Positions 3,169 to 41,576 of a stretch of 64,000 bases of DNA are shown here, piece after piece; positions within the stretch are counted from its first letter, which is position 1; each line of letters starts with the position of its first letter. Position numbers and translations under genes: made by a program. The notes beneath the pieces are model-generated. The model was given only the letters and a program-made list of their open reading frames with translations, was not told where the DNA came from and searched no databases. Source of the DNA: Acidobacteriota bacterium (GTDB lineage Bacteria; Acidobacteriota; UBA6911; RPQK01; CBDFMZ01). The stretch lies in the NCBI GenBank assembly GCA_965249865.1, contig CBDFMZ010000001.1, positions 704,415 through 768,414 on the forward strand, given 5' to 3'.

Positions 3169-3900
3169 CTAGTCGTCTCGTCCCCCAAGAAGGTCGGCCC
3201 GCATCAGGAAGTAAAGCAAGGTTAGAAGAGTAGAGATAGCTGCTGCAACGTAGGTCAGAGCGGCTGCATTTAAGACGCGATCCATCCCGGCTCGTTCCTG
3301 TGGCAGGATGATACCCTTTTCGACCACCAGCGACTTTGCACGACTTGAGGCATTAAATTCCACAGGCAAGGTTATTATTTGGAAAAGGAGCACTGCCGAA
3401 AACAGCACGGCCCCGATTCCAACTAGATTGTTCGAGCCCATCATCAGCCCGACCAACATGACGATATAACCAATACTGGAGCCGATGTTGGCCGTCGGGA
3501 CCAGTAAAGAGCGAACCCACAACGGTCCATAGTTTTGGGAATGCTGCAGGGCGTGGCCGGCTTCGTGGCTGGCTGCGCCAATGGCGGCAATCGAGGACGA
3601 GTCGTAAACGTTTTTTTATAGAGCTAAGGTCTTGGTCACGGGATTGTAATGATCAGAAAGCAGGCCGTGAGTGGAAACAATCTTGACGTCGCTAATGCCC
3701 GCTCTTTTGAGCAATTCCGCTGCCGTCTCTCGTCCGGTTAAACCTCGTATAGATCGGACGGTGGAGTATTTGTTGAAGTTGGCTTTGACCCTCCAGCTAG
3801 CCCACATAGACAGCGCTAGGGCGGGTATCATGAAAAGCAGGTAAATAGGGTCGAAGAACATGATGAGTTCCCTTTTTCTTCGGTCAAAGCCCAGGCCCAC
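3169..3900 (-). pseudogene. YugP-like neutral zinc metallopeptidase interrupted by one in-frame TAA
   Basis: Two minus-strand ORFs (3616..3900 and 3169..3522) in the same frame are separated only by stop TAA (plus-strand tta 3616-3618). Readthrough gives ...NPVTKTLAL*KNVYDSSSIAAIGAASHEAGHALQH... with intact HExxH and the membrane-anchored N-terminus typical of the family. Confidence 0.6.
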
Positions 3901-4351
3901 ATTGTATTCAGGAAAGTGGAACCTGTCTAGCAGCTAGCAGTCCCGTGGTAAAAGTAGAGTGTGTTTGTCTGCCATGCATCTGCGGTTGCTGGCCATCTAC
4001 GGGAGGAGTTGATGTCGTAGCGCTGACTCGCCGTCACGCCTCAAATCAGGAACCGTTTTCAGCTGCAACAACATGGCATGTTCTTTGTGGGCCAGGATAC
4101 TAGATTCGTCGAGGTAAAAAAATGGATGATTAGGAACCGAATTTCTGTTAGATTCTCTCGTTTGACGTTGATATTATTACTCTCGGTCTCCGATTCTAGT
4201 GAAAATCTCACCATAAAACGAATGAGGAGTTGCAAGGTTCACGTGAAAAAATGCTGTATGCGCTGCAGCGCTGATATATACTATGGCCGCGCCCGGACGG
4301 GAATCCCGGCGTAGATGTCATCCTGGTGCTAGGTAGGTCAAGGAAGGGATT

Positions 4352-25418: not shown

Positions 25419-25940
25419 TGGCAGTCATAGGTTACTTTTGTCGCAATGGTTTAACCTGATATTCCTCATATCCACTTTGGACATGAGTTCCTCTGATCTC
25501 TCCGTGACGAATGATCGAAACCTATCATCATCCCAACATTGGAGCAAACGTTTTCCCTGAACAGCACCTCTGATCCCTTTGTTATCAAGATGCTTTTGTC
25601 AAAATTTGCTCGGTGGATACAATTCTCCACCCACTCGATCAGAATCACTTGGTGCTAAGCTTTACCAACGTCGCGATCCCAAAAGCCCAGCCTTCAACTC
25701 CTCCATCGACTCCACATCCAAAATCACTTTGGTAACCCAGGGATCACAAGCCCTTTTCAGCCGAAAAATGAGGAAAAAAGAGGGGGGGGAGTGTAAAGAA
25801 AAGTTACCCTGTGTTAGTTCACCCTCGAAATGCCCCAAAATGACAGACAAATGGGAACATTTTGGAAACATCTGCCAATTTGAGTGGTTTGGATGCGGCA
25901 GCGTAAAGACAGTAACCTACTGAAAATACTAACGAGAGGC

Positions 25941-25985
<45 letters not shown>

Positions 25986-26179
25986 ATCGTTTCAGCCCTT
26001 CACCGATCTCCTAGCGGGTCAATATTTTCCTAATTTCTCAATACCTTACGATTGTCATTCTCTGGGCCAGTTAGTTTCAAATTCCCCGGAAAACGTCAGT
26101 AAAACGTCAGTAAATGAGGAACGGGGGGCGCCGGTTTGGACCGATTACGAGGTGACAATGGAGAGGGGGATCTAGGATT

Positions 26180-27154
26180 TTGGCACGAATAAGATACATC
26201 AAGCCCGAATTACCCATGAACGAAGATCTGGCGGATCTGGGTCACACGGCCATGCTGTTGTTCGCCATGCTGCCCATGCTGGCAGATCGGGAGGGCCGTC
26301 TGGAAGATCGCCCGAGGCGTATTAAGGCCCAACTCTTCCCGCATGACAATACCCAAATCGAAATACATCTAGACAATCTAGTGAAAGATGGATTTTTGCG
26401 TAGATATGAAGTGGATGGTGAGGCGTACATTGCAATTGTGAACTGGACTAAGCACCAGAGACCGCACGATACGGAGAGAAAGTCTGAGATCCCAGAACCC
26501 CCTATTATTCAACAAGTTAAAGAAAAGACCGTTAACTCACCGTTAGATAACCGTGAACTCACCGTTAACTCACCGTTAGATAACCGTGAACTCACCGTTA
26601 ACTCACCGTTAGATAACCGTGAACTCACCGTTAACTCACCGTTAGATAACGGAGAAAATCCGCCCTTAATGGGGAAGGGAATGGGGAAGGGAATGGGGAA
26701 GGGAATGGGGAAGGGAATGGGGAATGGGGAGTGTGCACCTACGGTGCACCACGCGCGCGCGCAAGGCAAACCACCAGACACGACGTGTGAACGGGTTTTT
26801 AACCACTGGAATTCCTGTGATGCCTTGACTCGTCACCGAAACCTGACCAGCAAGATGAGATCTGGAGTTACTGCGCGACTAGAGGCTGGCTATCGCGAAG
26901 ACGATCTCTGCCAAGCAATTAGTCGGTATGCTGAGATGTGCCAGAAGCAAAGAGCACCAGGCCACAATCAGTGGGGTCTATATCAGCTCATGACACGTGA
27001 TGAAGGGGGTTGGATTGACCGGATGCTGAACCCGGAATACAAAGGAATCCAAACGAACAGTTCGCCGCAACCTGGACACACAAAGCGGAGTCAGCAAAAC
27101 GTGAAAAATGCCGAAGATTGGGTCAAGAGGAGAAAGCAACATGAACGCCAATGA
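26180..27154 (+). CDS. phage replication-initiator-like protein (lambda O-like arrangement with internal iterons)
   Basis: 324-aa ORF; N-terminal winged-helix-like region; internal protein repeats ELTVNSPLDNR x4 and GKGMGK x4 are encoded by DNA iterons; first gene after attL. Confidence 0.5.
   Translation: MARIRYIKPELPMNEDLADLGHTAMLLFAMLPMLADREGRLEDRPRRIKAQLFPHDNTQIEIHLDNLVKDGFLRRYEVDGEAYIAIVNWTKHQRPHDTERKSEIPEPPIIQQVKEKTVNSPLDNRELTVNSPLDNRELTVNSPLDNRELTVNSPLDNGENPPLMGKGMGKGMGKGMGKGMGNGECAPTVHHARAQGKPPDTTCERVFNHWNSCDALTRHRNLTSKMRSGVTARLEAGYREDDLCQAISRYAEMCQKQRAPGHNQWGLYQLMTRDEGGWIDRMLNPEYKGIQTNSSPQPGHTKRSQQNVKNAEDWVKRRKQHERQ
26526..26650. repeat. 4 x 33-bp tandem iterons (each built from about 11-bp sub-repeats [tc]accgt[tg]a..) - candidate phage ori
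   Basis: accgttaactcaccgttagataaccgtgaactc repeated at 26526, 26559, 26592 and (partial) 26625. Confidence 0.75.
26662..26760. repeat. G-rich 12-bp tandem repeat (ggggaagggaat x4-5) followed by palindrome gtgcacc..ggtgcac and (cg)5 tract
   Basis: Direct reading of 26662-26760; G-runs of 3-4 on + strand could form G4; alternating CGCGCGCGCG follows. Confidence 0.7.
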
Positions 27155-27827
27155 GCAAGCCACTTTCAGCAAAATTATCGCGGCCTACGCCAACACCTTG
27201 AGGCACGACATTTCCGCAGATGCCATCGAAATCTGGTGGCGCAAGCTCTCAAGGTTCGACCTATTTTCTATCGCTAAGGCTTTTTCCGATTATACCGAAA
27301 AAGGTCGGTTTTTCCCGTCACCGTCAGAAATAATTAGCCTTTTAGAGCCCGAGAAAGGAGGTTCACCTCTGCTGGCCTGGGTGGAAGTTGAAACAGCAAT
27401 AGTTCGGCATGGAGGTTATGTCACAGTTCAATTTACAGACCTGGTGACTAACGCTGTGATCCGCGATCTTGGCGGATGGCCCTGGCTGTGCCAGCAGAAC
27501 CTGGATGAACCCTGGATGCAAAAGGAGTTCGAGCGTCGCTATGGCGAGTACCATCAACACAAAGTGAACTACTCAACGCCACTTCAGGGGCTGGTGGAGC
27601 AACACAACCGCCTGAAGGGATACCACGATCACATCCCAGAACCGGTCGTGATCGGGGAGGGCCCAGTGGCATTGCCAGAGCCGGATCGGACCCGCGAGGT
27701 GCTCTCCAAACTCGGAGAACTCGTGAAGCAAAAGGAGAAGCCGGAAGGCGGGGAGACGGCCTCTCGGAAAGCGAAGCCGATGCCACCTGCTGCTGCCTTG
27801 ATCGACGAAGAGGAGGTGCCGGTTTGA
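27108..27827 (+). CDS. hypothetical phage protein (replication-module position)
   Basis: 239-aa ORF overlapping the upstream gene end; no recognised motifs. Confidence 0.45.
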   Translation: MPKIGSRGESNMNANEQATFSKIIAAYANTLRHDISADAIEIWWRKLSRFDLFSIAKAFSDYTEKGRFFPSPSEIISLLEPEKGGSPLLAWVEVETAIVRHGGYVTVQFTDLVTNAVIRDLGGWPWLCQQNLDEPWMQKEFERRYGEYHQHKVNYSTPLQGLVEQHNRLKGYHDHIPEPVVIGEGPVALPEPDRTREVLSKLGELVKQKEKPEGGETASRKAKPMPPAAALIDEEEVPV

Positions 27828-28018
27828 GCCCGCATATGGGCGCCTATCTCGGGGTTGATCCAGGGGCATCGGGAGGAATTGCGATGGTTGATGGCGATCT
27901 GGCGCAAGTTTGGGCATTCAAGAAACTGACGGAGCGGGACATCTCGGATCTGTTCGAGTGTTTTGAGGCCCGAGGGAATGTGGAGGAAGGACAATCAACC
28001 AAGACCGCCGCCCCCTGA
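27824..28018 (+). pseudogene. RuvC-like Holliday-junction resolvase N-terminal fragment
   Basis: MSPHMGAYLGVDPGASGGIAMVDGDL resembles the RuvC-fold N-terminus (I.GIDPG...G.A..). The ORF ends after 64 aa and is followed by about 170 bp of GC-rich sequence with no coherent frame before the cargo region. Confidence 0.4.
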
Positions 28019-28183
28019 TCTGCCCCCACTGCCAGGGCGCCATCTCGTCTTCCCTGGTCGCCAGGTACCTTGGCGCTCCCGGGTCCGCTTCCAAATCTCC
28101 CAAGAAGGTCGCCTCCGCCATGCGCAACATCGCCAAGGCGCAAAAGGCCCGGTGGAAGGGCCACCGGAGGAAGAAGGCGAAGC

Positions 28184-30649
28184 ATGGAATCTGTCGGCCA
28201 CGCCGACTACAATGTGAACCGTAAAAAGTGGAACTGCATCCCAAGGTTGAAGAGGTATTTTGTGTTTAAAAAGGGCCTGTTCGTTTCTGTCTTAGGTCTA
28301 CTGTCGGTTGTAGCGGCGGACCTTGTCACTGCTGCTGCACCGAGCGTGGAGATCTACACCCGAAACGGGAAAGGCACGAATCAAGATCCTGCCAAATCGA
28401 ACGCCTGGTTTAGTCCAAGGGCCAGGATCAATGGGACGGATGGGGAGCTTTTGGGCGGATATACTTTTCGCTGGAGATCCGAACCGCCCATGGTTTTTCT
28501 TGGTACGGATACGTGCTGTGCCCGGTTTCTTCTCCCAGAGGGTTGGGAAACGCTCACCGAATTCACAATTGTTCTTGAATTGGTCACTACCTCGAGGACG
28601 ACGATCCACACGCAATCCTTTTGGGCAAAGGAGGAATCCGGTGATGGAGGAGGTGAGTTGACACTCCCCTCCAACGTAGTAGCGCAGGTCAGCCCAGAAA
28701 TAGCGAGTTTAGGCGGTATCTTTTCCTTGACGGGTTCAGCTAGCGGGACAGTGGACCAATGGGCTTGGCTGGTGAGCAACACTTCGACAGACAAAGGGCT
28801 TGTCGTTAGAACGACGCAGAATGCTTCCTATCCGGCACCTCAGTATAGTACCAACCTTTACTTCACCCTGGAGGCTTCCAACAGCTTAGGGACCACTCCT
28901 AGCCTTCAGGTCAAGGTTGAGACCCGTGAGGAGAGTGATTCGAGTACGCCGAAAACGTGCAACGACTGCGCCACGGGTAATTCTCCCCAGGTGGATGCTG
29001 GTTCTATCAGTGAAACTATTCAGGGGGGACAGGTGCTCGCCCTGAATGGTAGCTGTATTGACCGTAATTCATATGGGGGGGCGGTCTCACCTGTCTCTCG
29101 AACCTTCCTGTGGGAGATCATCAATGACCAGGGATTGACGAGCTCGGGGTTGAAAATTGACAGTGCGGACGAACAAAATGCTTTCCTGGTGACGCCTTCG
29201 GTGGATGAGGATAAGCCACCTATTGAGATTCGGTTCAGCTGCATAGTCAACAGTTGTCCCTGCGAGGATTTGATTCTGGTGACTCTGAACAAGGACGCGC
29301 CAAGCCAAGTGGATGCCAGGCTGCAATACGGGGTGGGAGCCGATGGCGGCTTGATCGATGCCCCGGAGCAGCTAGTCGAGGTGTATTCTGCAGTTGAAAT
29401 CATTCTTGAAGCGAGTGGTAGCATTGGGGACAACTTGAGTGACGCGAACTTCGAGTGGACAAAGCAGGAAAATATCACCAGTGAACAGGGAGGAGTCGTC
29501 CTTGTCAAAAATGGCATGACTGCCACGCTGGTGCTTTCAGGAGGTACTGAGGGGACAATCACAGTCATAATCACGGTGACGCAAGGTAGTTCCACTTCGA
29601 GCAAATCAATAACTTTTAACGTTAGTGCTTCCACTCAACAGCCTTTAGCCCAGGTTCAGGTTTTCGTACAGGGTCGGGAAGTCCCTGAAGACGTCCCTTC
29701 GCCAATCGAAGTCGCAGAAGGTGTGTTGGTGGTCTTGGATGGTTCTGACAGTTCTTATCCGAATGGAAGTAAGCCCAATTTGACCTTCGACTGGCAGCAA
29801 GTTGGAGGAACACCCGTGAATCTGATTGGGCTCGATCAGGACCAGGCACGATTCATCGCACCGGATGCGAATGGTGAGGAGGGAATTCTTAAGTTACAGC
29901 TTACGGTGCATGATGGGGAGATCAGCTCCGAGCCGGAGTTGGTGGAGATTCGAGTGGTAATCGCACCTTTCTATTTTGCTCAAGTCGGAGTGGGTCCTGT
30001 GGATACTGAGTACGAGTTTCGGACAGTTTTGTTGTTGGTGAACAACACAGACCAGTTGGCGGAGAACGTTTTGGTTGAGTTCACCGACTGGACGGGTGTG
30101 CCTTTGGAAACGACGGTTAATGAGCAAGCTTGGGAGAATGCTCCGTTTGAAATCAATTCTCTCTCCTTTGCGCGGCTGGAGCTTCGAGGAGATACTCTTC
30201 AAGAAGGTTGGGCTTGTGTGAAGTCCGCTGTGGAATTGACCGGTTTGGTACTCTTCCAGGTCGTTGAAAGCATGTCTGGAAAGGTAGACCGGGAGGTAGC
30301 CATCTTCGAATCGCCCAGTGCCACAGGATTTGTGACCTACTTTAATCGGTTGGAACAAACAGTCGCTGCCATCGCCAATCCGGGAGAGCAAGTAGCAACG
30401 GTAAGGCTAACGATTAGCGATACAATTCTGGGCGAAGTGAAATCTAAACTTCTAGAGATTGGGTCTAGAGAGCACGTAGCCGAATTTTTGAATGAGGATT
30501 TCTTTGGGGAATTCCTTGAGGGCTTTGAACAGGGGACGCTCGTAATAGAGTCTGACTTGCCCGTGATTGTGACCATTCTGAAGACCGAAAAGGGGCTTGT
30601 GTGGTCTACGACGCCGATAGGCATCATTCGCCCGCAATTTCTTCTCTAG
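28184..30649 (+). CDS. large secreted protein with PKD/Ig-like repeat domains
   Basis: 821 aa from ATG 28184 (the listed 28070 TTG extension looks spurious); signal peptide VFKKGLFVSVLGLLSVVAA; PKD-like segment VVLDGSDSSYPNGSKPNLTFDWQQVGGTPVNL...ARFIAPD...LKLQLTVHDGE; Thr/Ser/Val-rich beta composition. Confidence 0.55.
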   Translation: MESVGHADYNVNRKKWNCIPRLKRYFVFKKGLFVSVLGLLSVVAADLVTAAAPSVEIYTRNGKGTNQDPAKSNAWFSPRARINGTDGELLGGYTFRWRSEPPMVFLGTDTCCARFLLPEGWETLTEFTIVLELVTTSRTTIHTQSFWAKEESGDGGGELTLPSNVVAQVSPEIASLGGIFSLTGSASGTVDQWAWLVSNTSTDKGLVVRTTQNASYPAPQYSTNLYFTLEASNSLGTTPSLQVKVETREESDSSTPKTCNDCATGNSPQVDAGSISETIQGGQVLALNGSCIDRNSYGGAVSPVSRTFLWEIINDQGLTSSGLKIDSADEQNAFLVTPSVDEDKPPIEIRFSCIVNSCPCEDLILVTLNKDAPSQVDARLQYGVGADGGLIDAPEQLVEVYSAVEIILEASGSIGDNLSDANFEWTKQENITSEQGGVVLVKNGMTATLVLSGGTEGTITVIITVTQGSSTSSKSITFNVSASTQQPLAQVQVFVQGREVPEDVPSPIEVAEGVLVVLDGSDSSYPNGSKPNLTFDWQQVGGTPVNLIGLDQDQARFIAPDANGEEGILKLQLTVHDGEISSEPELVEIRVVIAPFYFAQVGVGPVDTEYEFRTVLLLVNNTDQLAENVLVEFTDWTGVPLETTVNEQAWENAPFEINSLSFARLELRGDTLQEGWACVKSAVELTGLVLFQVVESMSGKVDREVAIFESPSATGFVTYFNRLEQTVAAIANPGEQVATVRLTISDTILGEVKSKLLEIGSREHVAEFLNEDFFGEFLEGFEQGTLVIESDLPVIVTILKTEKGLVWSTTPIGIIRPQFLL

Positions 30650-30756
30650 CCGCTGATTTTTATGGCGGCTATCGCGCAGCGCATGGAGAATACCCAGCTT
30701 CGCTACAAGGATTTGGTGGCATAGTTGTGGCGACAACACCCTTCCAGGACTAAGAA

Positions 30757-33081
30757 ATGACGGACAAAAAGCGCCAAACGGACCCAAAGGAATCCGCGAC
30801 GCGGAAGAGGATCGATATTATCCTCAACAACCTCAAATGGAATACTAATGAGTCGTCCCCACATTGCAACGTCTTCACGGAGCGGGCCAAAACTTCTGAG
30901 CAGCACCGCGCACTCCGAGGACGGCACCCAGACTATGTTCTCTATCGGTCCGGGACCGACACGCCGATTGCAGTCATTGAGGCGAAACGCTCCGGTCAGA
31001 GCCTCGAAAAGGCACGCAAAAAGGCCATCCTATATTATTCCACGCCCTTGAAGGTGCAGATCGTCTTCCTGGCCGATGGGTCACTCATCGAAACCTTCGA
31101 CCGACGAAGCGGACGAGCGCTGCTCGACGATGGTGAGCCGATCACGTCATTGCTCTCAGAGAAGCAATTGCTCCGCTTTGTGGAAGAAGGACCTGAAATC
31201 CAAACCCCTCCAGTTGTCCAGCATACGAAGCAGGAATTGATCGCAGTATTTAAGGAAGCGAACGATTTGCTCCGGCGTGAGGGCCTGCGAGAGGGGATCG
31301 AACGCTTCACGGAGTTCTCCAACCTTCTGTTCCTGAAACTCATCAATGAGATTGAGCAGGAGCGCGAGAGTCGAGGCGATCAGAGAATCTTGGAGAAGAA
31401 ATACTGTTGGGATGCCTTCTATCAACGGACGGGTGAAGATATGCTCGACTATATCAACGACACGATTTTACCCCGACTGGTCAATCGGTATAACCATAGT
31501 GGCGACGTGTTCCAGCCGAGGCTCCTAATTTCTTCCCCGAACACGCTCAAGCGAATTGTCGATAAGCTCTCGGCACTCACGTTGGTTGACACTGATTCAG
31601 ACATTAAGGGAGACGCCTTTGAGTATTTCCTGAAGAACTCGATTTCTGTAGGCAATGATCTGGGCGAATACTTTACGCCACGCCATATCGTTAGGCTCAT
31701 GGTTGATCTTGTGGACCCGCGCTTTGGTGAGCTCATCTACGATCCGGCGTGTGGAACAGGTGGTTTTCTGATTCAGGCGTTTCGACATATCAAGAACAAG
31801 GTGCGGCAGACAAAGCCGAATCTCCGGCGACTGAGAGAGCGAACTGTATACGGGCGTGAGCTGACAGGCACCGCTAAGATCGCCAAGATGAACATGATAA
31901 TTATTGGCGATGGGCACACAAACGTTGAGCAGAAGGACAGCCTGAAGCATCCGGTGAGACAAGCCTATGATGTGGTGCTCACGAACTATCCGTTTTCCCA
32001 GGACACCGAGTTTTCCAACTACTACGGGCTCACGACCGAGAGCGCAAACCCGGTGTTTTTGAAGCATGTGATTGATGCGCTCAAAAACGGAGGACGCGCC
32101 GCTGTCGTGGTGCCGGAGGGTTTACTGTTCGATGAAGGGTCTCAGTGCGAGAAGGTTCGCAGAATCCTTCTGGAGACGTGCGGCCTCGAATCGGTCATCA
32201 GCCTCCATCAGTACGCGTTTCGCCCGTATACTGGCCAGCCGACTAGCATACTCGTATTCCATAAAGGGAGTCCTACTCGCAAGGTCTGGTTTTTCGACAT
32301 TCAGGAAGATGGATTTGCCAAAACACTTAGGCTCACAGGTAGACCTACCATCAAGGAGAACGACATTCCACTACTGCGGCAATTGTGGTACGAAAAGTCC
32401 GATTCTGACAGGTCATTTTCCGTTGGGGTTGATTCAATACGCACACATGGTTATAAGCTTACAGCCGATGAGTATCGCGAGACACACGGAAAAGACGGGT
32501 GGGTGCCACTCGGAGGGAATCGTGGCCTGTGCGATCTCGTGATCGGTGGCACACCGTCTCGAAAGAAGCTTCAGTATTTTGGCGGTCCGCATCTATGGGT
32601 CAAGATAGGGGACATATCGAACGCAAACGGCCTGCCTATCACCGAGACGAATGAAACGATTACAGATGAAGGCGTCGATAAATCGAACGTGAAGCTGGTT
32701 CCAAAAGGCACGGTGTTGTTGAGTTTTAAGCTATCTGTCGGCAAGGTAGCGATTGCCGGTTCTGACCTGTATACCAATGAAGCGATTGCCGCGCTGATCC
32801 CTAAAGACAAACGCATACTCCCGAAGTATCTCTATTATTTGCTCCCAAGGCTCGATGGTCTTGGAACTCGGAAGGCCGCGAAGGGCATAACGTCTAGCAA
32901 GGCACGTTTAGCCGAAGTGCTTGTTCCGCTTCCTTCACTCCGCGTTCAGAAAAAACTTATTAAGGAAATGGACGGGCAAGAAGTCCAGATTAGGGCCTAT
33001 GAACAGAAGATTAAGCGGGCAAATGCGAGAGAGGAAACCCTCGTGAATGAACTGACACTCCCGTTGAAAGACAACGCATGA
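30757..33081 (+). CDS. single-chain Type IIG-like restriction-modification enzyme (PD-(D/E)xK nuclease + gamma-class N6-adenine MTase + HsdS-like TRD)
   Basis: 774 aa. N-terminus has HsdR_N-like nuclease motif (HPDYVLY ... IAVIEAKR). Middle has MTase motif I DPACGTGGFL and motif IV TNYPFS. C-terminal about 200 aa resemble a type I specificity-subunit target-recognition domain (..VPKGTVLLSFKLSVGKVAIAG..). Confidence 0.65.
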   Translation: MTDKKRQTDPKESATRKRIDIILNNLKWNTNESSPHCNVFTERAKTSEQHRALRGRHPDYVLYRSGTDTPIAVIEAKRSGQSLEKARKKAILYYSTPLKVQIVFLADGSLIETFDRRSGRALLDDGEPITSLLSEKQLLRFVEEGPEIQTPPVVQHTKQELIAVFKEANDLLRREGLREGIERFTEFSNLLFLKLINEIEQERESRGDQRILEKKYCWDAFYQRTGEDMLDYINDTILPRLVNRYNHSGDVFQPRLLISSPNTLKRIVDKLSALTLVDTDSDIKGDAFEYFLKNSISVGNDLGEYFTPRHIVRLMVDLVDPRFGELIYDPACGTGGFLIQAFRHIKNKVRQTKPNLRRLRERTVYGRELTGTAKIAKMNMIIIGDGHTNVEQKDSLKHPVRQAYDVVLTNYPFSQDTEFSNYYGLTTESANPVFLKHVIDALKNGGRAAVVVPEGLLFDEGSQCEKVRRILLETCGLESVISLHQYAFRPYTGQPTSILVFHKGSPTRKVWFFDIQEDGFAKTLRLTGRPTIKENDIPLLRQLWYEKSDSDRSFSVGVDSIRTHGYKLTADEYRETHGKDGWVPLGGNRGLCDLVIGGTPSRKKLQYFGGPHLWVKIGDISNANGLPITETNETITDEGVDKSNVKLVPKGTVLLSFKLSVGKVAIAGSDLYTNEAIAALIPKDKRILPKYLYYLLPRLDGLGTRKAAKGITSSKARLAEVLVPLPSLRVQKKLIKEMDGQEVQIRAYEQKIKRANAREETLVNELTLPLKDNA

Positions 33082-33374
33082 CTACGACACCTAAGCCAAA
33101 GCAGGGCGAGGTTGCGATAAAGAAACCCAAGACCGTTAAAGAGTACGTCAGAGGCGATGTTCACACCAATGGCATTGAGTCTCTATGGTCCATGCTCAAG
33201 CGCGGATATGTAGGAACCTATCACCAGATGAGCGCGAAGCACGTCCATCGGTACGTTAGAGAGTTCGCCGGTCGGCAGAACCTTCGGGAGTTCGACACCC
33301 TGACGCAGATGGGCCTCCTCGCTAAGGGACTGGACGGAAAGCTCCTCCACTACCGTGATCTGATTGCGGACTGA
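33078..33374 (+). pseudogene. IS1595-family (ISXO2-like) transposase C-terminal remnant
   Basis: From EYVRGDVHTNGIESLWSMLKRGYVGTYHQMSAKHVHRYVREFAGRQNLRE.. about 70% identical to the C-terminus of the full-length transposase at 37924..38958; the N-terminal 250 aa are missing; overlaps the stop of the upstream RM gene by 4 nt. Confidence 0.7.
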
Positions 33375-33454
33375 GGAAAACTTTGTGAAAGTCTTGTTGA
33401 TAAGGTGTTAACTTCTTGTGAATCAACTGTTTACGGACGATTTGTGTTGACGGA

Positions 33455-34303
33455 ATGAGCCAAGCTGCGTATATTCTCCACGTGCCAAAGGTGCCGTCGA
33501 TAGACCCCGTTGTTTCCACGGATTTAGGGAAGCTCTACCAAGCCGATTGCTTGGAAGTCTTGCCGGGGATACGCAGTGATTCGGTCGATGCTGTGTTTGC
33601 CGATCCTCCCTTTAATCTTCGGAAAAACTATGGCGGTCACGTGAAAGACGATAGGAGAGACTATCTCGGGTGGTGTCTCGCATGGTTGGAGGAGTGCGTT
33701 CGCATCTTGCGGCCCGGGGGGTCGGTATTTGTCTACAATCTGCCGAAATGGAACGTGCAGATTGCCGGTGCACTTGAAGGCATGGGGATGGAGTTTCGTC
33801 ATTGGATAGCCGTAGAGCAGAATAACCGCCTCCCGATCCGTGGGCGGCTGTACCCTTCGCACTACTCTCTGATCTACTACTCGAAGGGAAGCCCTAAAAC
33901 ATTTCACCATATCCGTACCCCAATAACCACGTGCCGACATTGCGGGAAGGAACTCAAAGACTATGGGGGCCACCGGAAAGCGATGCACCCGGACGGAGTG
34001 AATCTCAAAGACGTGTGGACCGACATCCCTCCTGTTCGTCATTGGAAGTTCAAGCCGACCACTCGGAACTGCAATTCTCTGAGTACCAAGCTCCTAGAAC
34101 GTGTTATTGAAATCAGCACGGAGCCGGGGGACGTTGTGCTTGATCCGTTTGGAGGAAGCGGAACGACTTACGCTGTATGCGAACAGAAGTCCCGCAAGTG
34201 GATCGGGATAGAAATAGAAGACCTTAGTTCCATCTTGGAGCGCCTGAACGGAGGGGTTTATAACCACTCCAATGATGATGTGGTGGAGTTTTGCCAGTCA
34301 TAA
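33455..34303 (+). CDS. DNA methyltransferase, beta-class (N4-cytosine or N6-adenine; DPPF motif)
   Basis: 282 aa; motif IV FADPPFNL near N-terminus and motif I LDPFGGSGTT near C-terminus (circularly permuted beta-class order). Confidence 0.8.
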   Translation: MSQAAYILHVPKVPSIDPVVSTDLGKLYQADCLEVLPGIRSDSVDAVFADPPFNLRKNYGGHVKDDRRDYLGWCLAWLEECVRILRPGGSVFVYNLPKWNVQIAGALEGMGMEFRHWIAVEQNNRLPIRGRLYPSHYSLIYYSKGSPKTFHHIRTPITTCRHCGKELKDYGGHRKAMHPDGVNLKDVWTDIPPVRHWKFKPTTRNCNSLSTKLLERVIEISTEPGDVVLDPFGGSGTTYAVCEQKSRKWIGIEIEDLSSILERLNGGVYNHSNDDVVEFCQS

Positions 34304-34821
34304 CTGAACGCCAAAGTTTCAACGGGTTTGAAGTAAAGATCCAGCGGCTTAACCTGGAAGAAGTGATCGCCGAAGTATACGAAGCGGTAGAGTCTTTCGA
34401 GCTTCGAGTTGATGAGCGGATACACGCAAACGGGACTCGGTGGATTCGTCAGCAAATCGACACCCACTTTGAACGAGTGGGAGGCTGGGAAAACACCGTT
34501 GTGGGTGGGGTGGATTGGAAGAAGTCAAACTCTCGCGGGAGTACAGTCGCCGTTGAGGTTCAAGTCTCCGGGAGAAGTGACCTGCTTGCGGTGGATGTCT
34601 TGCACCTTGGGCGGGTTCTTACCGGGGGAACTGTTGATGTCGGTTTGATTGTAGTACCTGACGATACCTTGTCAAGATTCCTAACCGACCGGACACCCAA
34701 TCTCAGAACAGCATTGAGGCACATAGACGGGGAAATGGCAGTTCAGATAGTTGCGTTCCGGCATGACGGGGCTGGACCCGCTTTGCCAAAAATGAGAACT
34801 AATCTCGGGAAGGCTCCATGA
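34291..34821 (+). CDS. putative Type II restriction endonuclease partner of upstream MTase
   Basis: 176-aa ORF overlapping the MTase stop by 13 nt; no recognisable family, assignment by context; contains acidic/lysine candidates (VEVQVSGRSD..). Confidence 0.35.
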   Translation: MPVITERQSFNGFEVKIQRLNLEEVIAEVYEAVESFELRVDERIHANGTRWIRQQIDTHFERVGGWENTVVGGVDWKKSNSRGSTVAVEVQVSGRSDLLAVDVLHLGRVLTGGTVDVGLIVVPDDTLSRFLTDRTPNLRTALRHIDGEMAVQIVAFRHDGAGPALPKMRTNLGKAP

Positions 34822-34991
34822 AAGACCGAACGAAGCCCAAACGCAAGCCTGGCCGTCCCTCCAAGCCTATCCCTAAGCTGGATGCTACGCCGGAGGAAAT
34901 AGCCAGGAGAATCTTTGAAAACGCCAAGCCCCCGGACCCGTCAATTCGAGTCAGGAACAAACCGGAGAAATTAGGAGGGTTGGCTAGTTAG
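34818..34991 (+). CDS. small basic protein (57 aa), AT-hook-like GRP motif
   Basis: MKDRTKPKRKPGRPSKPIPKLDATPEEIARRIFENAK..; ATG overlaps the upstream stop (atga); ends at the inverted-repeat junction. Confidence 0.35.
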   Translation: MKDRTKPKRKPGRPSKPIPKLDATPEEIARRIFENAKPPDPSIRVRNKPEKLGGLAS

Positions 34992-35040
34992 GTATGTAAT
35001 CCCCTTCGTTTAGGGGATTATATACTAAAGTAGCGAAGCA
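34980..35040. repeat. two IS1595-type terminal inverted repeats abutting outward-to-outward, 7-bp spacer (ttcgttt)
   Basis: 34980-35004 ttggctagttaggtatgtaatcccc (degenerate, about 17/23 match to the 38961-38989 end, same orientation) and 35012-35040 aggggattatatactaaagtagcgaagca (23/26 match to the reverse complement of 38961-38989). Confidence 0.6.
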
Positions 35041-35046
35041 CCTGAC

Positions 35047-35223
35047 TCACTTTGACTCCTTCTCAGGCATGACCTTGCGAATCCTCACAGGTTTTACCAG
35101 TGCCTGAATCGCTTCCTTGAAGGTGCCCTTGATCCGCAAGTCTTCGCGCAGTTCCGCACGGCTCGGTTGGTAGTCGTGAGAGACGATCTCGACCGTTGGA
35201 GTCTTGTCTTGCTTCTTTGTCAT
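35047..35223 (-). CDS. small hypothetical protein (58 aa) downstream of Type IIG gene
   Basis: MTKKQDKTPTVEIVSHDYQPSRAELREDLRIKGTFKEAIQALVKPVRIRKVMPEKESK; 24 bp after the Type IIG stop, same strand. Confidence 0.3.
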   Translation of the reverse strand: MTKKQDKTPTVEIVSHDYQPSRAELREDLRIKGTFKEAIQALVKPVRIRKVMPEKESK

Positions 35224-35247
35224 CACATCCTCCTCAGAGTTCGATCA

Positions 35248-37914
35248 TCATACTGACGACAGTACATGAGCGAGCGAGTCCGACACTGCATCAGCTTCCT
35301 GCCTCAATGACGTCGATCTATCCAATTGCTCTAACGCAACGTCAACGGACGCCTTCTGTTCATGCTTGTCGGGTGGATACAAAATTCTGAGTGCTTTAAT
35401 GGCCGGATAGTCCAATGCCAACCGAGACGATCCTGTAACCGCTCGATTGAATTGTGACCGGCATAAGTCGGAATTAAGAAACAGGCACAGATACTCCGGC
35501 ATGATCTCATTGTTAACTTCTATCTTTACAGAGTGTTGATTGATGTTCGCAGGCGGGAATCCTTTCTGGACCACTGCCGCGATTCCGTAGGTTCCTGTAA
35601 TCGTCAACACGACGTCTGATTCGCACAACTGCGACCTGCGCAGCGCGTCATGTGTCCTTGTTCCAATACACGGATCGTCTTCTGGGCTCCATTCCAGTCT
35701 CATCGGCTTTACGTTCTGGACCCGCACAAACTTTGGGCCGTCGTCAGGATACGATGCGCCGCGCGGAGTTGCTCCACCAGCCAGAGCGGTCTTGCTGCTC
35801 TTACGAAGCAATTCCCCGAGTGGCTTGATGAACCATGCACGCTTGGATGCCACTTCGTCCAGCGTATCCATTGTGTCGAAGTAGCGCGGATCGAAGAAGT
35901 GCGCGTCAAGTCGAAGCGTTGGATTGTGTGAGCGAAGGTCTGGCACGAGAAACGCCCGGTCCTTCCCGCGCAACTTTCCAGTAGAATCGAAATTCTCGAA
36001 CTCCTCCAGGATCTGCGGCAACTCATTGAGGTGTGGACGCTCCTTTCCTGAATCGCTATGCCCAACGTTCTTGCAAATGGCCATGAAAACATCAGCCTGG
36101 GGTTCCGATGGATCTGTCTTCTTCCGTAAGTAGATCACTGACGTCCTGACTGAGCCTTGTGCCTTGACGAACGTGTTACGCGGAAGCGAGATGACTGCAC
36201 GCAGAACAAACTTCGCCAGAATATATTCACGAAACGGTCTTGACGTTAGTGTGTTGAGGACGCTTTCGTCCATTATGGTGACTAAGCGACCCGCGCCCAG
36301 GTCAGAATCTCCACCTGTTAGTAGATCATGGTAGCGTTCGAGGAACATCACCGATGAACGCAGAGATGCCCGTGGCTTTCCATCCTCGTCTGTTGCTAGC
36401 GCATAGTCACTAAGTACCGAGAGTTCGCTTGGCTCCTTCCGTTCGTACGTCATAGAGAACGGTGGATTGCTGAGAACGCAGGAAAAAGTTGTCTTCCCGG
36501 TCGTGATCTCAGATCGCAGTTCGTCGATTTCAAGTTGCATTGGAAGCGGCAGTCCGTCCTCGGTGAGGAGGCGCTTATCTAGGGCGTCAGCAAAGTAGAT
36601 GCGACTTCCACCGTCCTTGTGCAGCAACATATTCAGGCGAGCTATACGCGCCATTTTCGGATCCTTGCCGGCATCAATGCCCCACAACATTCCTTGCCGC
36701 AGTCGCCGGAGTAGCTTTGCCTTCTCTGCCTTGGTAATCGATTTGCTTCTGAGCACCTTCCCTGTCATTTCGGCCATGGCTTCGATGAGGAAACCGCCGC
36801 TGCCGCAGCAGCCGTCCAAAACCAAATCCATCTTGGCCTTTGAGGCCCGCAATTTCGCAAGTTGCACCATGAACTTAACAACCGCGCGGGGTGTAAAAAA
36901 CTGCCCTAATGCCTTACCACGCATTGTTGCGGTGAGAAACGTTTCGAACAAGCGGCCGTTCAAATCCTCATCGACAGTGTAGAGGTCAAGGTGCTCAAGG
37001 AATAAAACCGCAGCCTTCACAGTCAGAGGCGCTAGTTGAATGCCCTCACCGGGCTCAAATATCCGCTTCTTTTCACCTTTTGCGATCTGAGCCTCAAGTT
37101 GCTTTGCGAGTTGAGCGAAAAGGATCGTATCGATGGGGTTGTCCGTCGTACTTTCCATCTGCTCAATCCAATCAACAGAAAAGCGAACCGCATCGGCTGG
37201 CACGGCCTCCGCCCCGGCTTCGATCTTGTTTTCAATCAAATACTCACGGAGGCGACGGTCTTCGTCGATCTTCACAAACATGACCTTGGCGAACTCGTAA
37301 AACGCAGAGGCGGGGCTTCGCTTTTCGGCTTTCCAGATCCTCCGATGGCAAGACTCGAAGATAGCCGGAAGCTCCACAGGTGCAACAGAGCGAAAATCGA
37401 AGGTGTTCCCCTTCGTGCCTTGACCTGTAGGGATCTCAGTCAACGAATCGCGGGCTATAGCTGAACAAAGGGCCTCAAACACGGGATGCCCATCAACAAG
37501 TTCAGCGAACGCCAGTGAATGCATCACTTTGTCGCTATCGTAGTGCTTGACGACCAACCGATGCCCGTTGATGCCCATGCAATACTGCTCGGGCTTCGGC
37601 TCCGACATTCGTCGGCGAATCACTGAGGCGTAGAGCTGCGCATCGTGGACTCCAGCTTCAGCGCTTTCATTGGGGTGTTTGGCGTCAATAATCAGAACAG
37701 GCTTGACCCTGGCGCGCACTGTATAGGCAAGGTAATCAGGAACGTATCCTCTATTCTTCTTCCTTCCCTTGCCTATTGATACCGCATCGATAGAGGCTTT
37801 GGTTTCAAGATAGTCTGCCCCGTACCCAAGATGTGCCAGTAGGGGCGCAACCAGAAACTGTTCGACATCGCTCTCGTTCCGAAGATTCTTGAGCTTGCAG
37901 AACAAATTCAACAT
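35248..37914 (-). CDS. single-chain Type IIG-like restriction-modification enzyme, second paralogue (nuclease + MTase + TRD)
   Basis: 888 aa. N-terminal PD-(D/E)xK (VPDYLAY ... VLIIDAKH), MTase motif I LDGCCGSGGFL and motif IV SNPPFS, C-terminal HsdS-like TRD; same architecture as 30757..33081 but divergent sequence. Confidence 0.65.
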   Translation of the reverse strand: MLNLFCKLKNLRNESDVEQFLVAPLLAHLGYGADYLETKASIDAVSIGKGRKKNRGYVPDYLAYTVRARVKPVLIIDAKHPNESAEAGVHDAQLYASVIRRRMSEPKPEQYCMGINGHRLVVKHYDSDKVMHSLAFAELVDGHPVFEALCSAIARDSLTEIPTGQGTKGNTFDFRSVAPVELPAIFESCHRRIWKAEKRSPASAFYEFAKVMFVKIDEDRRLREYLIENKIEAGAEAVPADAVRFSVDWIEQMESTTDNPIDTILFAQLAKQLEAQIAKGEKKRIFEPGEGIQLAPLTVKAAVLFLEHLDLYTVDEDLNGRLFETFLTATMRGKALGQFFTPRAVVKFMVQLAKLRASKAKMDLVLDGCCGSGGFLIEAMAEMTGKVLRSKSITKAEKAKLLRRLRQGMLWGIDAGKDPKMARIARLNMLLHKDGGSRIYFADALDKRLLTEDGLPLPMQLEIDELRSEITTGKTTFSCVLSNPPFSMTYERKEPSELSVLSDYALATDEDGKPRASLRSSVMFLERYHDLLTGGDSDLGAGRLVTIMDESVLNTLTSRPFREYILAKFVLRAVISLPRNTFVKAQGSVRTSVIYLRKKTDPSEPQADVFMAICKNVGHSDSGKERPHLNELPQILEEFENFDSTGKLRGKDRAFLVPDLRSHNPTLRLDAHFFDPRYFDTMDTLDEVASKRAWFIKPLGELLRKSSKTALAGGATPRGASYPDDGPKFVRVQNVKPMRLEWSPEDDPCIGTRTHDALRRSQLCESDVVLTITGTYGIAAVVQKGFPPANINQHSVKIEVNNEIMPEYLCLFLNSDLCRSQFNRAVTGSSRLALDYPAIKALRILYPPDKHEQKASVDVALEQLDRSTSLRQEADAVSDSLAHVLSSV

Positions 37915-37923
37915 GTCGATGCC

Positions 37924-38958
37924 CTAGTAGCTCCGCGCTCCCGAGTCGAGCCCATTGTCAGCAACCAGCTCTCGGTAACGCAGTCTCTTGCCGTTCATGC
38001 CGTCGCTGACAGTCTGCATCTGCTCGATGGTGTCCTGTTCGCGGACGTTGTGACGGCCAGCGAACTCCTGGACGTAGCGGTTCAGGTGCTTCGGGGAGAG
38101 CTTGTGGAACGTGCCCTTGTGCGCCCGTTTGAGCATGGACCACAGTGATTCTATGCCGTTGGTATGGACATCTCCCTTGACATACTCGGAGAGCGAGTGC
38201 TTGATGACTGCATGATCGAATGGAAGCGACTCATAGGCGGCTGCATCATCGGTGTAAACCGTAGCTCCTGGTGTGGCGTGATCCTTGACGAAACCTTGCA
38301 GCGTTTCCTTGTCGGCAAACCGAACAACCTTAGCAGCGACCTGCTTGGTAGCCCTATCCTTGGCTCCGACGACGGCGGTCTTGCCTACCGGCCCTCGTCC
38401 AGTGTCCGCCAGGGCCTTGCGCTTTGCTGTGCTCATATTCCGGCGACGACCCCCAAAATAGCTCTCGTCTACCTCGACCGGGCCACTAAACAGCGTATTG
38501 TCATCCTGTGACAAGGCGGAACGCAACCTCTGGGCAAGAAACCATGCAGACTTTTGAGTTATTTCAAGATCGCGGCTCAACTTCATGCTCGACACACTCT
38601 TCAGGTTGGTCATAATCTCGAACGTTGCGATGATCCAATCCTGATAACCGATCTTCGAGCCTTCCATCACCGTCCCAACCTTTGCGCTGAACAGCTTTCC
38701 GCATTCCTTCTCACGGCAGCGGAATGGCATGGTGGGATGCTTCGCTCCAGTCTGAACATTCAGCGACCCACACTTAGGGCAACACACGCCATTAGGCCAG
38801 CGTTGCTCAATAAACCACTTCTCCGCCGTTTCGTCATCGGGGAACATCCGCATGATCTGCTTGAGGGAGATGCCCTTGCGGAATGCCTTTCCAGGTGCCT
38901 TCTTTCTTCTCTTCTTTTCCATACTCAATATCTTACACGAGAGTAGCGGTGGCGTCAA
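37924..38958 (-). CDS. IS1595-family (ISXO2-like) transposase, full length
   Basis: 344 aa; N-terminal zinc ribbon (CPKCGSLNVQ...FRCREKECGKLF); DDE region; C-terminal HTNGIESLWSMLKR..HLNRYVQEFAGRHN typical of the ISXO2-like transposase domain. Confidence 0.8.
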   Translation of the reverse strand: MTPPLLSCKILSMEKKRRKKAPGKAFRKGISLKQIMRMFPDDETAEKWFIEQRWPNGVCCPKCGSLNVQTGAKHPTMPFRCREKECGKLFSAKVGTVMEGSKIGYQDWIIATFEIMTNLKSVSSMKLSRDLEITQKSAWFLAQRLRSALSQDDNTLFSGPVEVDESYFGGRRRNMSTAKRKALADTGRGPVGKTAVVGAKDRATKQVAAKVVRFADKETLQGFVKDHATPGATVYTDDAAAYESLPFDHAVIKHSLSEYVKGDVHTNGIESLWSMLKRAHKGTFHKLSPKHLNRYVQEFAGRHNVREQDTIEQMQTVSDGMNGKRLRYRELVADNGLDSGARSY

Positions 38959-40106: not shown

Positions 40107-41576
40107 GTGGCTTCCACCCACACGCAATCCGGCCTGGAGCGTCTTAGGCTAGAGTATCAGGGCTACACGCCTTTCCCGAAACAGGTGGCGTTTCACAAGT
40201 CTGGGGCACGGTATCGCTTGTTTGGGGGAGCGGCGGGTCCGGGAAAGAGTATTGCGCTGATCATGGAGGGGGTGAAGTTTGCTGGGGAGATGTACGACAA
40301 GGTAAGCGTGCTGATTTTACGGCGGACGTTCGAGGAGTTGGAAGGATCGATCATTTTGAACTTTCACCGTCAAGTCCCCCGGGAGTTGTATAAGAGCTAC
40401 AGCACCCAGAAGCACCGGGTGGAGTTTCACAATGGATCGATTCTGAAGTTCGGATATTGCAAGCATGAGAACGACATCTGGCAGTACCAGGGACACGAGT
40501 ACATTTTGGTGTTATGGGATGAGCTGACGCAGTTCACGCTTTCGCAGTGGCAGACGATGAAGGGGTGGAACCGCTCGCCGTATGGGCCGGGGAAGATGGC
40601 GGGGGCGACCAACCCGGTGGGAGTGGGCTGGAAGTGGGTCAAGCAGCTGTGGATCGACCGGGAGCCTGCCGATGGGATGGATGAGAACGAAAAGCGCCGG
40701 TATCAGCCTGCGGACCACCACTACATCCCGGCCAACTACACGGACAATCCGATTTACGCCAAGGACAAGAGCTACATTGCGGCGCTGGAGGCCCTGCCGA
40801 CACACCTGAAAGAAGCCTTGATGGCGGGGCGTTGGGACGTGCGGGCCGGGAGTTACTTCGATATTTTTGATCCGGCCACGATGTGCGGTCGGCCCGAGCT
40901 ATGGGAGATTCAGCCCTGGTGGCCGAAGTGGATCTCGATCGACTGGGGGTTCAATCATCCGGCGGCCGTGTACTGGCACACGCGGGACGGGCATGTGACG
41001 TACACCTACCGGGAGCTGATTGCCAGGAAGACGAAGCCGGGGGACTTGGCGGAAATGATCTGCAAGCGGTCCCTGGCGAGGCACGGGGAGCAGGAGAAGG
41101 TGGAGGCGGTCTATCTTTCGCCGGATGCCTTCTGGGACCGGAGCGGAGGCGGCACGATTGCGGACCAGATGCACGAGGCGTTTCGGGCAAAAGGATTTCC
41201 GACGGTGGCTCAGGCGGACAATGACCGGGTAGGGGGCGCGATGCTCATGTATAGCCTCTTGAGCGATGGCCTGTGGAAGATCGGGACCAACTGCACGAAG
41301 CTGATCGAGTGTTTGCCGATGATGCAGCGGGATGAGAGGAACGTCGAGGACGTGGCCAAGATGGACGGGGACGATCCGTATGAGGGAGCCAGATATGGGT
41401 TAAAGAGCCGTCTTTCGCCCAAGCGCACGCCGGTGATGCAGCGGATTCGCGCCGAGATCACGGCCGAGGACAAGAACGCGCAGGCGATGCAGATCCGCCG
41501 GGCCCTGGCCGAAGAGGAAAAGAAGGTTCAGCCCAGAAGGCTCCGGTACCGGCGGCGGCGAAGAAGAACCTGGTAA
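40107..41576 (+). CDS. phage terminase large subunit
   Basis: 489 aa; Walker A GGAAGPGKS, Walker B-like VLWDELTQF, C-terminal nuclease-like region with conserved Asp residues; position before portal. Confidence 0.8.
   Translation: MASTHTQSGLERLRLEYQGYTPFPKQVAFHKSGARYRLFGGAAGPGKSIALIMEGVKFAGEMYDKVSVLILRRTFEELEGSIILNFHRQVPRELYKSYSTQKHRVEFHNGSILKFGYCKHENDIWQYQGHEYILVLWDELTQFTLSQWQTMKGWNRSPYGPGKMAGATNPVGVGWKWVKQLWIDREPADGMDENEKRRYQPADHHYIPANYTDNPIYAKDKSYIAALEALPTHLKEALMAGRWDVRAGSYFDIFDPATMCGRPELWEIQPWWPKWISIDWGFNHPAAVYWHTRDGHVTYTYRELIARKTKPGDLAEMICKRSLARHGEQEKVEAVYLSPDAFWDRSGGGTIADQMHEAFRAKGFPTVAQADNDRVGGAMLMYSLLSDGLWKIGTNCTKLIECLPMMQRDERNVEDVAKMDGDDPYEGARYGLKSRLSPKRTPVMQRIRAEITAEDKNAQAMQIRRALAEEEKKVQPRRLRYRRRRRRTW

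Follow-up and report, generated by a model that had tools for sequence, protein, structure and literature searches.

Initiator gene and embedded repeat arrays

The window analyzed here is a stretch of 64,000 nucleotides from an Acidobacteriota bacterium (assembly GCA_965249865.1, contig CBDFMZ010000001.1, positions 704,415 to 768,414 of the forward strand), which contains, as the first gene of a prophage, a gene for a predicted replication initiator. Two tandem repeat arrays are found inside this gene, between the parts coding for its N-terminal and C-terminal domains, and here it is proposed that they are the probable replication origin of the prophage. The initiator gene and the elements inside it are the following.

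26180..27154, forward strand: replication initiator gene, with a TTG start, 324 aa and the N-terminus MARIRYIKP, from the list of open reading frames (ORFs)
26180..26509, forward strand: coding part of the N-terminal winged-helix domain (aa 1-110; AlphaFold2)
26180-26206, forward strand: coding part of the basic N-terminal arm M-A-R-I4-R-Y6-I-K-P, within that of the N-domain
26528..26650, no strand: array 1, a 33-bp unit of three boxes in 3.7 copies that are 100% identical, giving 11 quasi-palindromic boxes (T)MAC-C-GTKA spaced by exactly 11 bp from centre to centre; proposed winged-helix sites
26647..26656: a further, degenerate box (the 12th), TAACGGAGAA, which continues the register of array 1 and in whose place TAACGGTGAA is found in relatives (L001, L003 and L171 compared)
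26668..26729, forward strand: array 2, AATGGGGAAGGG x4.8 plus GGGAATGGGG
26733..26749: palindrome GTGCACC-TAC-GGTGCAC, of uncertain role
26752..26761: (CG)5, encoding Ala-Arg-Ala where the C-domain module begins
26777..27151, forward strand: coding part of the C-terminal helical domain (aa 200-324), with a predicted local distance difference test score (pLDDT) mostly >80

The encoded protein matches phrog_16167, annotated as 'replication initiation protein', over residues 1-317 (E=1.9e-54), as well as phrog_12556 (E=2.9e-35), and several sister PHROGs match its first ~120 residues. No Pfam or NCBIfam model matches it, the Pfam scan at E<=1 giving only a spurious C8 hit, and no sequence match was found in the PDB. 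Sequence homologues of the initiator number 2480. The gene is intact, and its reading frame is kept through the repeats.

The AlphaFold2 model, which was built on an alignment of 93 sequences, consists of a single winged helix and an unrelated helical C-domain. The N-domain (residues 1-110) has pLDDT values of 88-98 and the topology H-H-E-H-H-E-E, and the linker that follows (residues ~112-195) has values <50 and is predicted to be disordered, with arrays 1 and 2 together corresponding to residues 117-184. Foldseek searches with this model returned ArsR/MarR/HlyU winged helices and the N-terminal domain (NTD) of the plasmid initiator RepA (4pt7), with E of about 0.02-0.05. Matches in BFVD include the RSK1 replication protein and 'replisome organizer', with E of 1e-13 to 1e-16; over the BFVD entries that bear the latter name, the values are E=4e-13 to 1e-6.

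Tandem Repeats Finder identified a 33-bp unit, ACCGTTAACTCACCGTTAGATAACCGTGAACTC, in 3.7 copies with 100% matches at 26528-26650, a stretch that was also scored as an 11-bp period in 10.6 copies (77%), and a 12-bp G-rich unit, AATGGGGAAGGG, in 4.8 copies with 100% matches at 26668-26724; the G-rich run of array 2 reaches 26729, past the end of this call. The initial annotation had described four 33-bp iterons made of ~11-bp sub-repeats, followed by five or so G-rich units. The tandem unit and its 11-bp sub-period are real, while its copies are 3.7 and not four. Every G of array 2 lies on the sense strand, giving a GC skew of +1.0 in the composition profile.

The core AC[CG]GT occupies 11 successive positions from 26528 to 26638 with a spacing of exactly 11 bp. 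The box MACSGTKA has 31 matches on both strands of the window, against 11.9 +/- 3.9 in shuffled sequences, and 20 of the 31 correspond to the 10 palindromic boxes of array 1. A second cluster of this box is absent from the window, including the 38 kb of the element covered by it. Both tandem arrays are far above chance; the palindrome with its 7-bp arms and the 10-bp CG run, which had also been claimed and do lie within the initiator ORF, do not individually exceed chance in 64 kb.

The 33-bp and 12-bp repeats are in frame, and the protein has TVNSPLDNRE-L x3.7 and GKGM x4, the translation across the repeats reading ...KEKTVNSPLDNRELTVNSPLDNRELTVNSPLDNRELTVNSPLDNGENPPLMGKGMGKGMGKGMGKGMGNGECAPTVHHARAQ... 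As 11 leaves a remainder of 2 on division by 3, successive boxes fall in frames 0, 2 and 1, and the recurring peptide (L)TV(N)SPLDNGE can be read as three boxes in translation. The working unit of array 1 appears to be the 11-bp-phased box MAC-S-GTKA, present in 11 copies, and not the 33-bp unit.

Conservation of the phased boxes as DNA

The arrays were compared across two sets of unique loci, one of 147 drawn from IMG/VR and from GTDB genomes and an extended one of 238, with boxes counted in the 300 nt after the N-domain, taken as the linker region, and in three control regions. In the 147 loci, the box [AC]AC.GT[GT] occurs at 4.9/kb in linker DNA against 0.7-0.9/kb in the controls, and the spacings between pairs of boxes are concentrated at 11 bp (81 pairs), 22 bp (39) and 33 bp (24), with ~0 elsewhere. 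With the window excluded, phased boxes are distributed over the reading frames as 51/32/53, all three being used. A set of 164 loci without the strict box has autocorrelation values of 0.36/0.36/0.35 at lags of 11/22/33, against a background of ~0.25, and the autocorrelation of the control coding for the N-domain is flat. Since boxes are kept at 11 bp and are read in all three frames, selection on the peptide cannot explain their conservation, and the peptide TVNSPLDNGE would be a by-product of selection at the DNA level.

AC[CG]GT boxes at exactly 11 bp are found in relatives whose identity ranges from 32 to 80%, and sets of 2-5 boxes are kept down to ~35% identity. P0001 and P0002, which are the closest, share 59% identity with the initiator, are ~48 residues shorter and have fewer repeat units. 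The related prophage L001 has 5-6 boxes at 11-bp spacing and also an irregular GGGAAA/GGGAAT run. Among distant homologues, boxes at the exact spacing number 10 in L002/L003 and four in L004, and L013, L030, L033, L065 and L171-175 have 2-4 each. Phage RSK1 has a 33-bp repeat in two copies, composed of GCACCAGAAGA | GCACAGTGCTA | GAACAGTGCAA. The 11-bp-phased linker array would thus be a hallmark of the whole initiator family.

The array of the window is the longest in the 238 loci, with 11 boxes against 5 in the next of the relatives that share Ile4 and Tyr6 and 10 in L002/L003. The comparison of copy number in related prophages, which had been suggested as a check of the initial annotation, gave mostly 2-5 boxes in relatives against 11 here and 2-13 G-rich units. 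This variation, together with the predicted disorder of residues 112-195, supports the view that the repeats encode a linker tolerant of changes in copy number.

As a separate observation, the part of L004 that codes for the N-domain contains, besides the linker cluster of this relative, a small cluster at 4007-4029 (~codons 58-70), made up of three ACGGT boxes spaced by 11 bp.

Array 2 and its correspondence with the N-terminal arm

G-rich runs similar to ATGGGGAAGGGAATGGGG, of 2-13 units, were found before or after array 1 in relatives with a contig GC content of 34-70%. The GGGAAT-type array is kept as DNA in L171 (56% GC), L172 (48%), L173 (36%), L174, L184, L232 and others. Most family members, including all the cultured phages fetched (F10, JBD44, Bordetella IFTN1, HK639, RSK1 and a Vibrio phage), have CTGATTC(C) repeats at 7-8-bp spacing in this position. 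Two or more copies of CTGATTC, always on the sense strand, are present in 104 of the 147 linkers; in the DNA coding for the N-domain the corresponding number of loci is 0, upstream 0 and downstream 8. It is read in both frames that avoid the TGA stop (214/149) and yields the peptide 'PDSLIPDS'; in high-GC loci, ATT makes up 48% of the Ile codons in the linker against 19% in the rest of the gene. L060 and the frameshifted L177 have a C-rich tract on the sense strand where the G-rich array sits, and its peptides are unrelated (e.g., SPSPHSSSPS).

The type of array 2 is associated with the N-terminal arm of the initiator. Residues 4 and 6 best separate the GGGAAT-type from the CTGATTC-type arrays, with mutual information of 0.84 bits each. 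In the 238 loci, TGATTC is present at least twice in 151 of the 182 loci with Asn6 and in 0 of the 56 without it (Fisher p=2e-32), and all Asn6 loci carrying TGATTC have Ala or Ser at residue 4. G-rich words are found in 16 of 29 loci with Ile4 against 2 of 209 others. A set based on proteins only agrees with this association. The window has the arm I4/Y6 and an array of the GGGAAT type, as in other I-Y loci. Other arms are found with other words: A-S with CTGACTC, M-S with CAGATCC, A-T with CAGATCA, A-I with AAGATC, A-F with ATCCTGT, T-F with TGCGGAG, K-L with (CAGATA)9 and T-L with (CGGATA)7. When residues 11-99 are compared, the loci with other arms fall within the Asn6 proteins, and their nearest neighbours have 62-80% identity. 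This implies several independent changes of the arm that coincide with changes of the array.

This covariation is the strongest indication so far that array 2 is recognised by the arm of the initiator itself. It is tentatively suggested, as a possibility less likely than the origin assignment itself, that arm residues 4 and 6 form a two-residue DNA-recognition module that sets the 6-8-nt word of array 2 (A/S-N with CTGATTC, A-S with CTGACTC, I-Y with GGGAAT, K-L with CAGATAC, T-L with CGGATAC and so on), and that array 2 is the place of duplex opening instead of an AT-rich tract, possibly with one strand gripped, which would make it a phage counterpart of DnaA-trios with a swappable code. Binding of array 2 as single-stranded DNA is pure conjecture.

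Two other readings of array 2 were considered and set aside. The G-rich array of the window has 10 tracts of at least three G and 2 of the 6 plus-strand G-quadruplex motifs, where ~3 are expected on both strands; relatives of the same type have between 1 and 13 G3 tracts, so a conserved G-quadruplex is not supported, and a sequence-specific reading of GGGAAT would fit better. A reading of array 2 of the window as the reverse complement of CTGATTCC is not favored either, as the two share 6 nt (ATTCCC) and the arm residues differ.

Side observations on array 2 include long perfect hexamer arrays in L138 and in L053/L317, (CAGATA)9 and (CGGATA)7, translated as DTDTDT..., which are microsatellite-like extremes of the array. 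In L177 (P0003), a polypyrimidine tract of ~100 bp on the sense strand, within 3340-3540, occupies the place of the G-rich array, and the reading frame of the initiator breaks in this tract into ORFs of 212 aa and 98 aa, which may reflect either a pseudogene or a homopolymer error of long-read sequencing.

Initiator family and module exchange

The protein of the window can be assigned to a family of winged-helix initiators with the N-terminal motif M-A-R-x-R-x-I-K-P (PHROGs 16167/12556/1408), and it has the N-domain homology, the 11-bp-phased linker repeats and the arm-matched second array of this family. A profile of the N-domain matched 33,025 representatives of clusters at 50% identity, of which 21,609 at E<=1e-10, and nearly all of the 150 best matches listed begin no further than one residue from residue 1. 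Compared with 20 diverse members, the N-domain has ~50-60% identity and 21 invariant residues. The family spans many bacterial phyla and occurs in temperate phages of Pseudomonas aeruginosa, Ralstonia, Bordetella, Vibrio and E. coli, including Shiga toxin (Stx) phages. Homologues in F10, JBD44, RSK1 and Bordetella IFTN1 are next to or near DnaB/DnaC-like genes, the HK639 homologue lies between cII and a P-like loader, which is the slot of lambda O, and elsewhere homologues precede DnaC-like, DnaB-like or P-like genes.

The C-domain appears to be a swappable module, which occurs behind an unrelated N-domain too. In P0004-P0006, it is shared with 58-68% local identity to the query and is accompanied by the DUF6475 partner as in the window, behind N-termini unrelated to that of the window. 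L176 (P0006), which belongs to this group, has no array-1 boxes and no G-rich array and instead carries palindromic GGGTATCGATACCC boxes of its own. Conversely, family members with C-parts of the DnaD, DnaT, Phg_2220_C or HNH type keep the arrays. The arrays therefore seem to travel with the N-domain and not with the C-domain or the partner gene. In L176, whose initiator is of a different type, the GGGTATCGATACCC boxes were observed at 4173-4211 and 4384-4416, in places corresponding to the N-domain-coding part and to the linker.

The palindrome and (CG)5 had been put forward as parts of the origin, the latter as a Z-DNA-like tract; neither is supported as an origin part, and no evidence speaks for a structural role. 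The palindrome is kept only in the closest relative, L001, where its stem is identical and its loop differs (TTC), without covariation, and more distant relatives retain only a GAGTGTKCA word of this region. Runs of (CG)3-5, as GCGCGCGC or at least GCGCGCG, are conserved in L001, L177 and L176 (window 26752-26761; L001 6445-6452; L176 4526-4535; L177 3511-3517). As they are conserved in L176 despite its different N-domain and repeats, they are probably a part of that module or of a recombination junction and not of the origin; they mark the beginning of the shared C-domain module, and the run may be a joint for the exchange of initiator modules.

Interpretation as a probable replication origin

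The family assignment by PHROG, the location of the arrays in linker-coding DNA and the conservation of the boxes as DNA favor the candidate origin inside the initiator's own gene that the initial annotation had proposed. It is considered likely that the repeats are the replication origin of the prophage, situated in the linker-coding DNA of its own initiator gene in the manner of lambda O, with a recently expanded copy number.

We infer which part of the protein would bind which array, how the origin would fire and where it would be unwound as follows. N-domains would bind the 9-bp quasi-palindromic boxes (MAC-S-GTK core) once per helical turn (11 bp) on the same face of the DNA, the winged helix being assigned to the phased boxes by elimination. 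The box-bound initiators would oligomerise into a nucleoprotein complex similar to the O-some, and the basic arm M-A-R-I-R-Y-I-K-P would engage the adjacent tandem array (here GGGAAT/GGGGAAG), where the duplex would be distorted or opened. Recruitment of the host helicase would follow, through the C-domain together with the DUF6475 protein. The expanded array would have arisen from recent in-frame tandem duplication of the three-box (33-bp) unit, tolerated by the linker; the 100% identity of the copies points to a recent triplication of this unit. The extra boxes may help, for example by providing more local initiator, or may be neutral.

Several points weigh against this interpretation. The designation 'replication initiation protein' comes from PHROG annotation and denotes a predicted function, and no published binding or replication experiment was found for any member of the family. 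No AT-rich unwinding element like that of lambda is present near the arrays in 40-bp windows: GC is 55-60% in array 2 and 70% in the palindrome/(CG)5, and the only low-GC patch, of ~40 bp and 32% GC, lies just upstream of array 1 (minimum 32.5% at 26500-26539). The strict MAC-N-GTK box is phased in only 42 of the 147 loci, and the others use other 11-bp words, which makes a scheme of one conserved protein surface and one conserved core over-simple. The mutual information between recognition-helix residues and the type of box (central S or W) is low and diffuse (n=36), and the statistics of the arm/array association ignore phylogeny. With copies that are 100% identical, the extra boxes could be recent and neutral, and the copy number of a repeat can be wrong in an assembly. 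Finally, the prophage may be decaying, and this copy of the origin is not necessarily active.

Among the alternatives, the one that survives best, although it is unlikely, is that the arrays are protein-bound sites for control (autoregulation, titration or handcuffing, incompatibility or superinfection exclusion, or a centromere-like role), with the true origin elsewhere. The evidence at the DNA level demonstrates a conserved recognition element and not what the complex does, the lack of an AT-rich unwinding element fits this alternative, an expanded copy number is what a titration site might show, and in SPP1 a second gp38-bound site, oriR, has been proposed to stall forks (PMC6316719). However, with no other box cluster in the 38 kb of the element covered, an alternative origin of the same type is lacking, the arrays lie between the two halves of the gene that code for the domains, as do the proven lambda/Stx and SPP1 oriL origins, and no partition genes are found near the initiator. 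Sites for attP arm binding, a pac site and a partition site were rejected, because the arrays always remain inside the initiator gene, whatever the flanking genes or the place of integration.

Rather improbable is the alternative that only a canonical set of 2-4 boxes and 2-3 G-rich units is functional, the extra copies being a neutral expansion by slippage or unequal crossover, or an assembly error, in a prophage that may be defective. The copies are 100% identical, relatives manage with 2-5 boxes, the array is the largest in the 238 loci, the element has an insertion sequence (IS) and a truncated early gene, and only four of the six iterons of Stx phages were bound well (PMC7466680). Such an expansion is compatible with the arrays being an origin and is not opposed to it; moreover, the gene is intact with its frame kept, and the extra iterons of Stx phages were still required for plasmid establishment (PMC7466680).

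That the repeats matter as protein, with the linker peptides TVNSPLDNGE and GKGM binding a host partner or setting the distance between domains, is very improbable: the repeats (33 and 12 bp) are in frame in a predicted disordered linker and the peptides recur in distant homologues, but the 11-bp sub-period is invisible in the protein and the box is read in three frames, box counts of 2-5 in relatives are not multiples of three, array 2 may precede or follow array 1 and gives way to a C-rich tract with unrelated peptides in L060/L177, and high-GC hosts have fixed codons that are rare in them, such as ATT, with words conserved at 34-70% GC.

Comparison with known origins

It is textbook knowledge from lambda, P22 and SPP1 that an origin can lie within the gene of its initiator. 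The iterons of lambda are ~19-bp inverted repeats about two turns apart; the window has instead 9-bp quasi-palindromes every 11 bp, and it has a second, sequence-specific tandem array and no AT-rich tract. Its initiator also has no homology to lambda O (no Phage_rep_O match in Pfam at E<=1). The origin of lambda and of Stx phages lies in the middle of gene O, where the difference between 4 and 6 iterons changes O by 13 residues (PMC7466680). The window is similar in having repeats mid-gene, between the parts coding for a putative DNA-binding N-domain and a putative loader-binding C-domain, with in-frame variation of their number. A loader-type gene follows lambda O, and in the window the next gene is that for the DUF6475 protein, with only a weak 'helicase loader' match.

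In SPP1, gp38 binds the direct repeats of oriL within its own gene 38, and the origins have an AT-rich DNA unwinding element (DUE) (PMC6316719). The window resembles it in having repeats in the initiator's own gene and viral 'replisome organizer' proteins among the best structural matches, and differs in lacking a Pfam Phage_rep_org_N match and a second copy of the origin (cf. oriR) within the 64 kb. Synonymous recoding has reportedly been done for P1 repL (PMC9948254). Rep_3 plasmid proteins (RepA, pi, TrfA), which have tandem WH1-WH2 domains and 17-22-bp iterons outside rep, are unlike the initiator of the window, with no Pfam match, one winged helix and an intragenic 11-bp period.

In RepA_N plasmids (RepA of pSK41/pTZ2162) and in phage TP901-1 (Rep), the origin repeats are in the central, linker-coding part of rep and are bound by the N-terminal winged helix. 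The RepA NTD 4pt7 is the second-ranked fold match in the PDB, a weak one (E=0.04); the window has no sequence homology to these proteins, and in RepA_N and TP901-1 the iterons are all of one type, with no second array beside them. In DnaA-trios, and where Rep acts on one strand of the DUE in iteron plasmids, a short tandem word beside the double-strand boxes is engaged by the initiator during opening. Array 2 is likewise a tandem of 6-8 nt (here 6/12 nt), and where its word is CTGATTC, this invariably lies on the sense strand. Unlike DnaA-trios, its period is 6-8 nt and not 3, and its word is not AT-rich and varies with two residues of the arm.

As a single locus, the region is a predictable and ordinary prophage feature, and the interest lies in the family-wide two-part design and the correspondence between arm and array. 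Full-text literature searches found no published account of the origin type of this family, and its N-domain has no Pfam or NCBIfam model despite ~33,000 cluster representatives. If the two-part design is true, sequence alone would suffice to locate the origins in thousands of phages and prophages, their specificity, and thus the incompatibility of co-resident phages, could be predicted from two residues, and DNA opening by an initiator that lacks an AT-rich element could be studied in a compact system. The region moreover illustrates clearly how a DNA element dictates a conserved 'peptide motif' in a disordered linker, and a trap for searches of protein motifs.

Prophage context

Two features on the flanks of the initiator gene are the following.

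25941..25989, reverse strand: fragment similar to the 3' half of a tRNA, with T-arm GGTTCGAATCC, acceptor 3' strand and CCA; left edge of the element
27108..27827, forward strand: downstream partner gene, DUF6475/phrog_10105, candidate helicase-loading or recruiting protein

The partner protein matches Pfam PF20081 (E=3.4e-15) and phrog_10105 (E=1.7e-38), and has a weak match to phrog_2289, 'helicase loader' (E=0.002). The pair of initiator and DUF6475 genes is also present in L001, L004, L176 and L177. The tRNA-like fragment has a sub-threshold Rfam tRNA match (18.2 bits), a remnant of the anticodon loop suggests Arg-TCT, and L001 has a tRNA-like junction arranged as in the window. ARAGORN found no whole tRNA in the 64-kb window, so that the other end of the element would be beyond 64000 or has been lost. 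The gene for the terminase large subunit is found downstream at 40107-41576 and, with the tRNA-like fragment upstream, agrees with the description of the initiator gene as the first of the prophage.

After the DUF6475 gene, a 64-aa ORF (27824-28018) has a weak match to a Holliday-junction resolvase (E=0.003). The stretch 28070-38958 begins with an 859-aa ORF without a Pfam match and includes N6-adenine methylase/type-I-like genes (30757-33081 and, on the reverse strand, 35248-37914), another DNA methylase gene (33455-34303) and an IS1595 transposase (37924-38958). The resolvase-like stub, the restriction-modification methylases and IS1595 point to a prophage that is possibly decaying; its early region looks broken up by cargo or insertions, and it may be defective.

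A scan for promoters and terminators in 25850-27300 gave nothing above the shuffled expectation. A direct repeat of 11 bp, AAAACGTCAGT, is present in 2.3 copies at 26090-26114, ~70 bp before the initiator gene starts, and may be an operator or promoter element of the early operon. The related prophage L001 has an exact counterpart of it (5821-5845), and L176 and L177 have a different 11-bp repeat in two copies, CTTSCGGTTTG, in the equivalent place.

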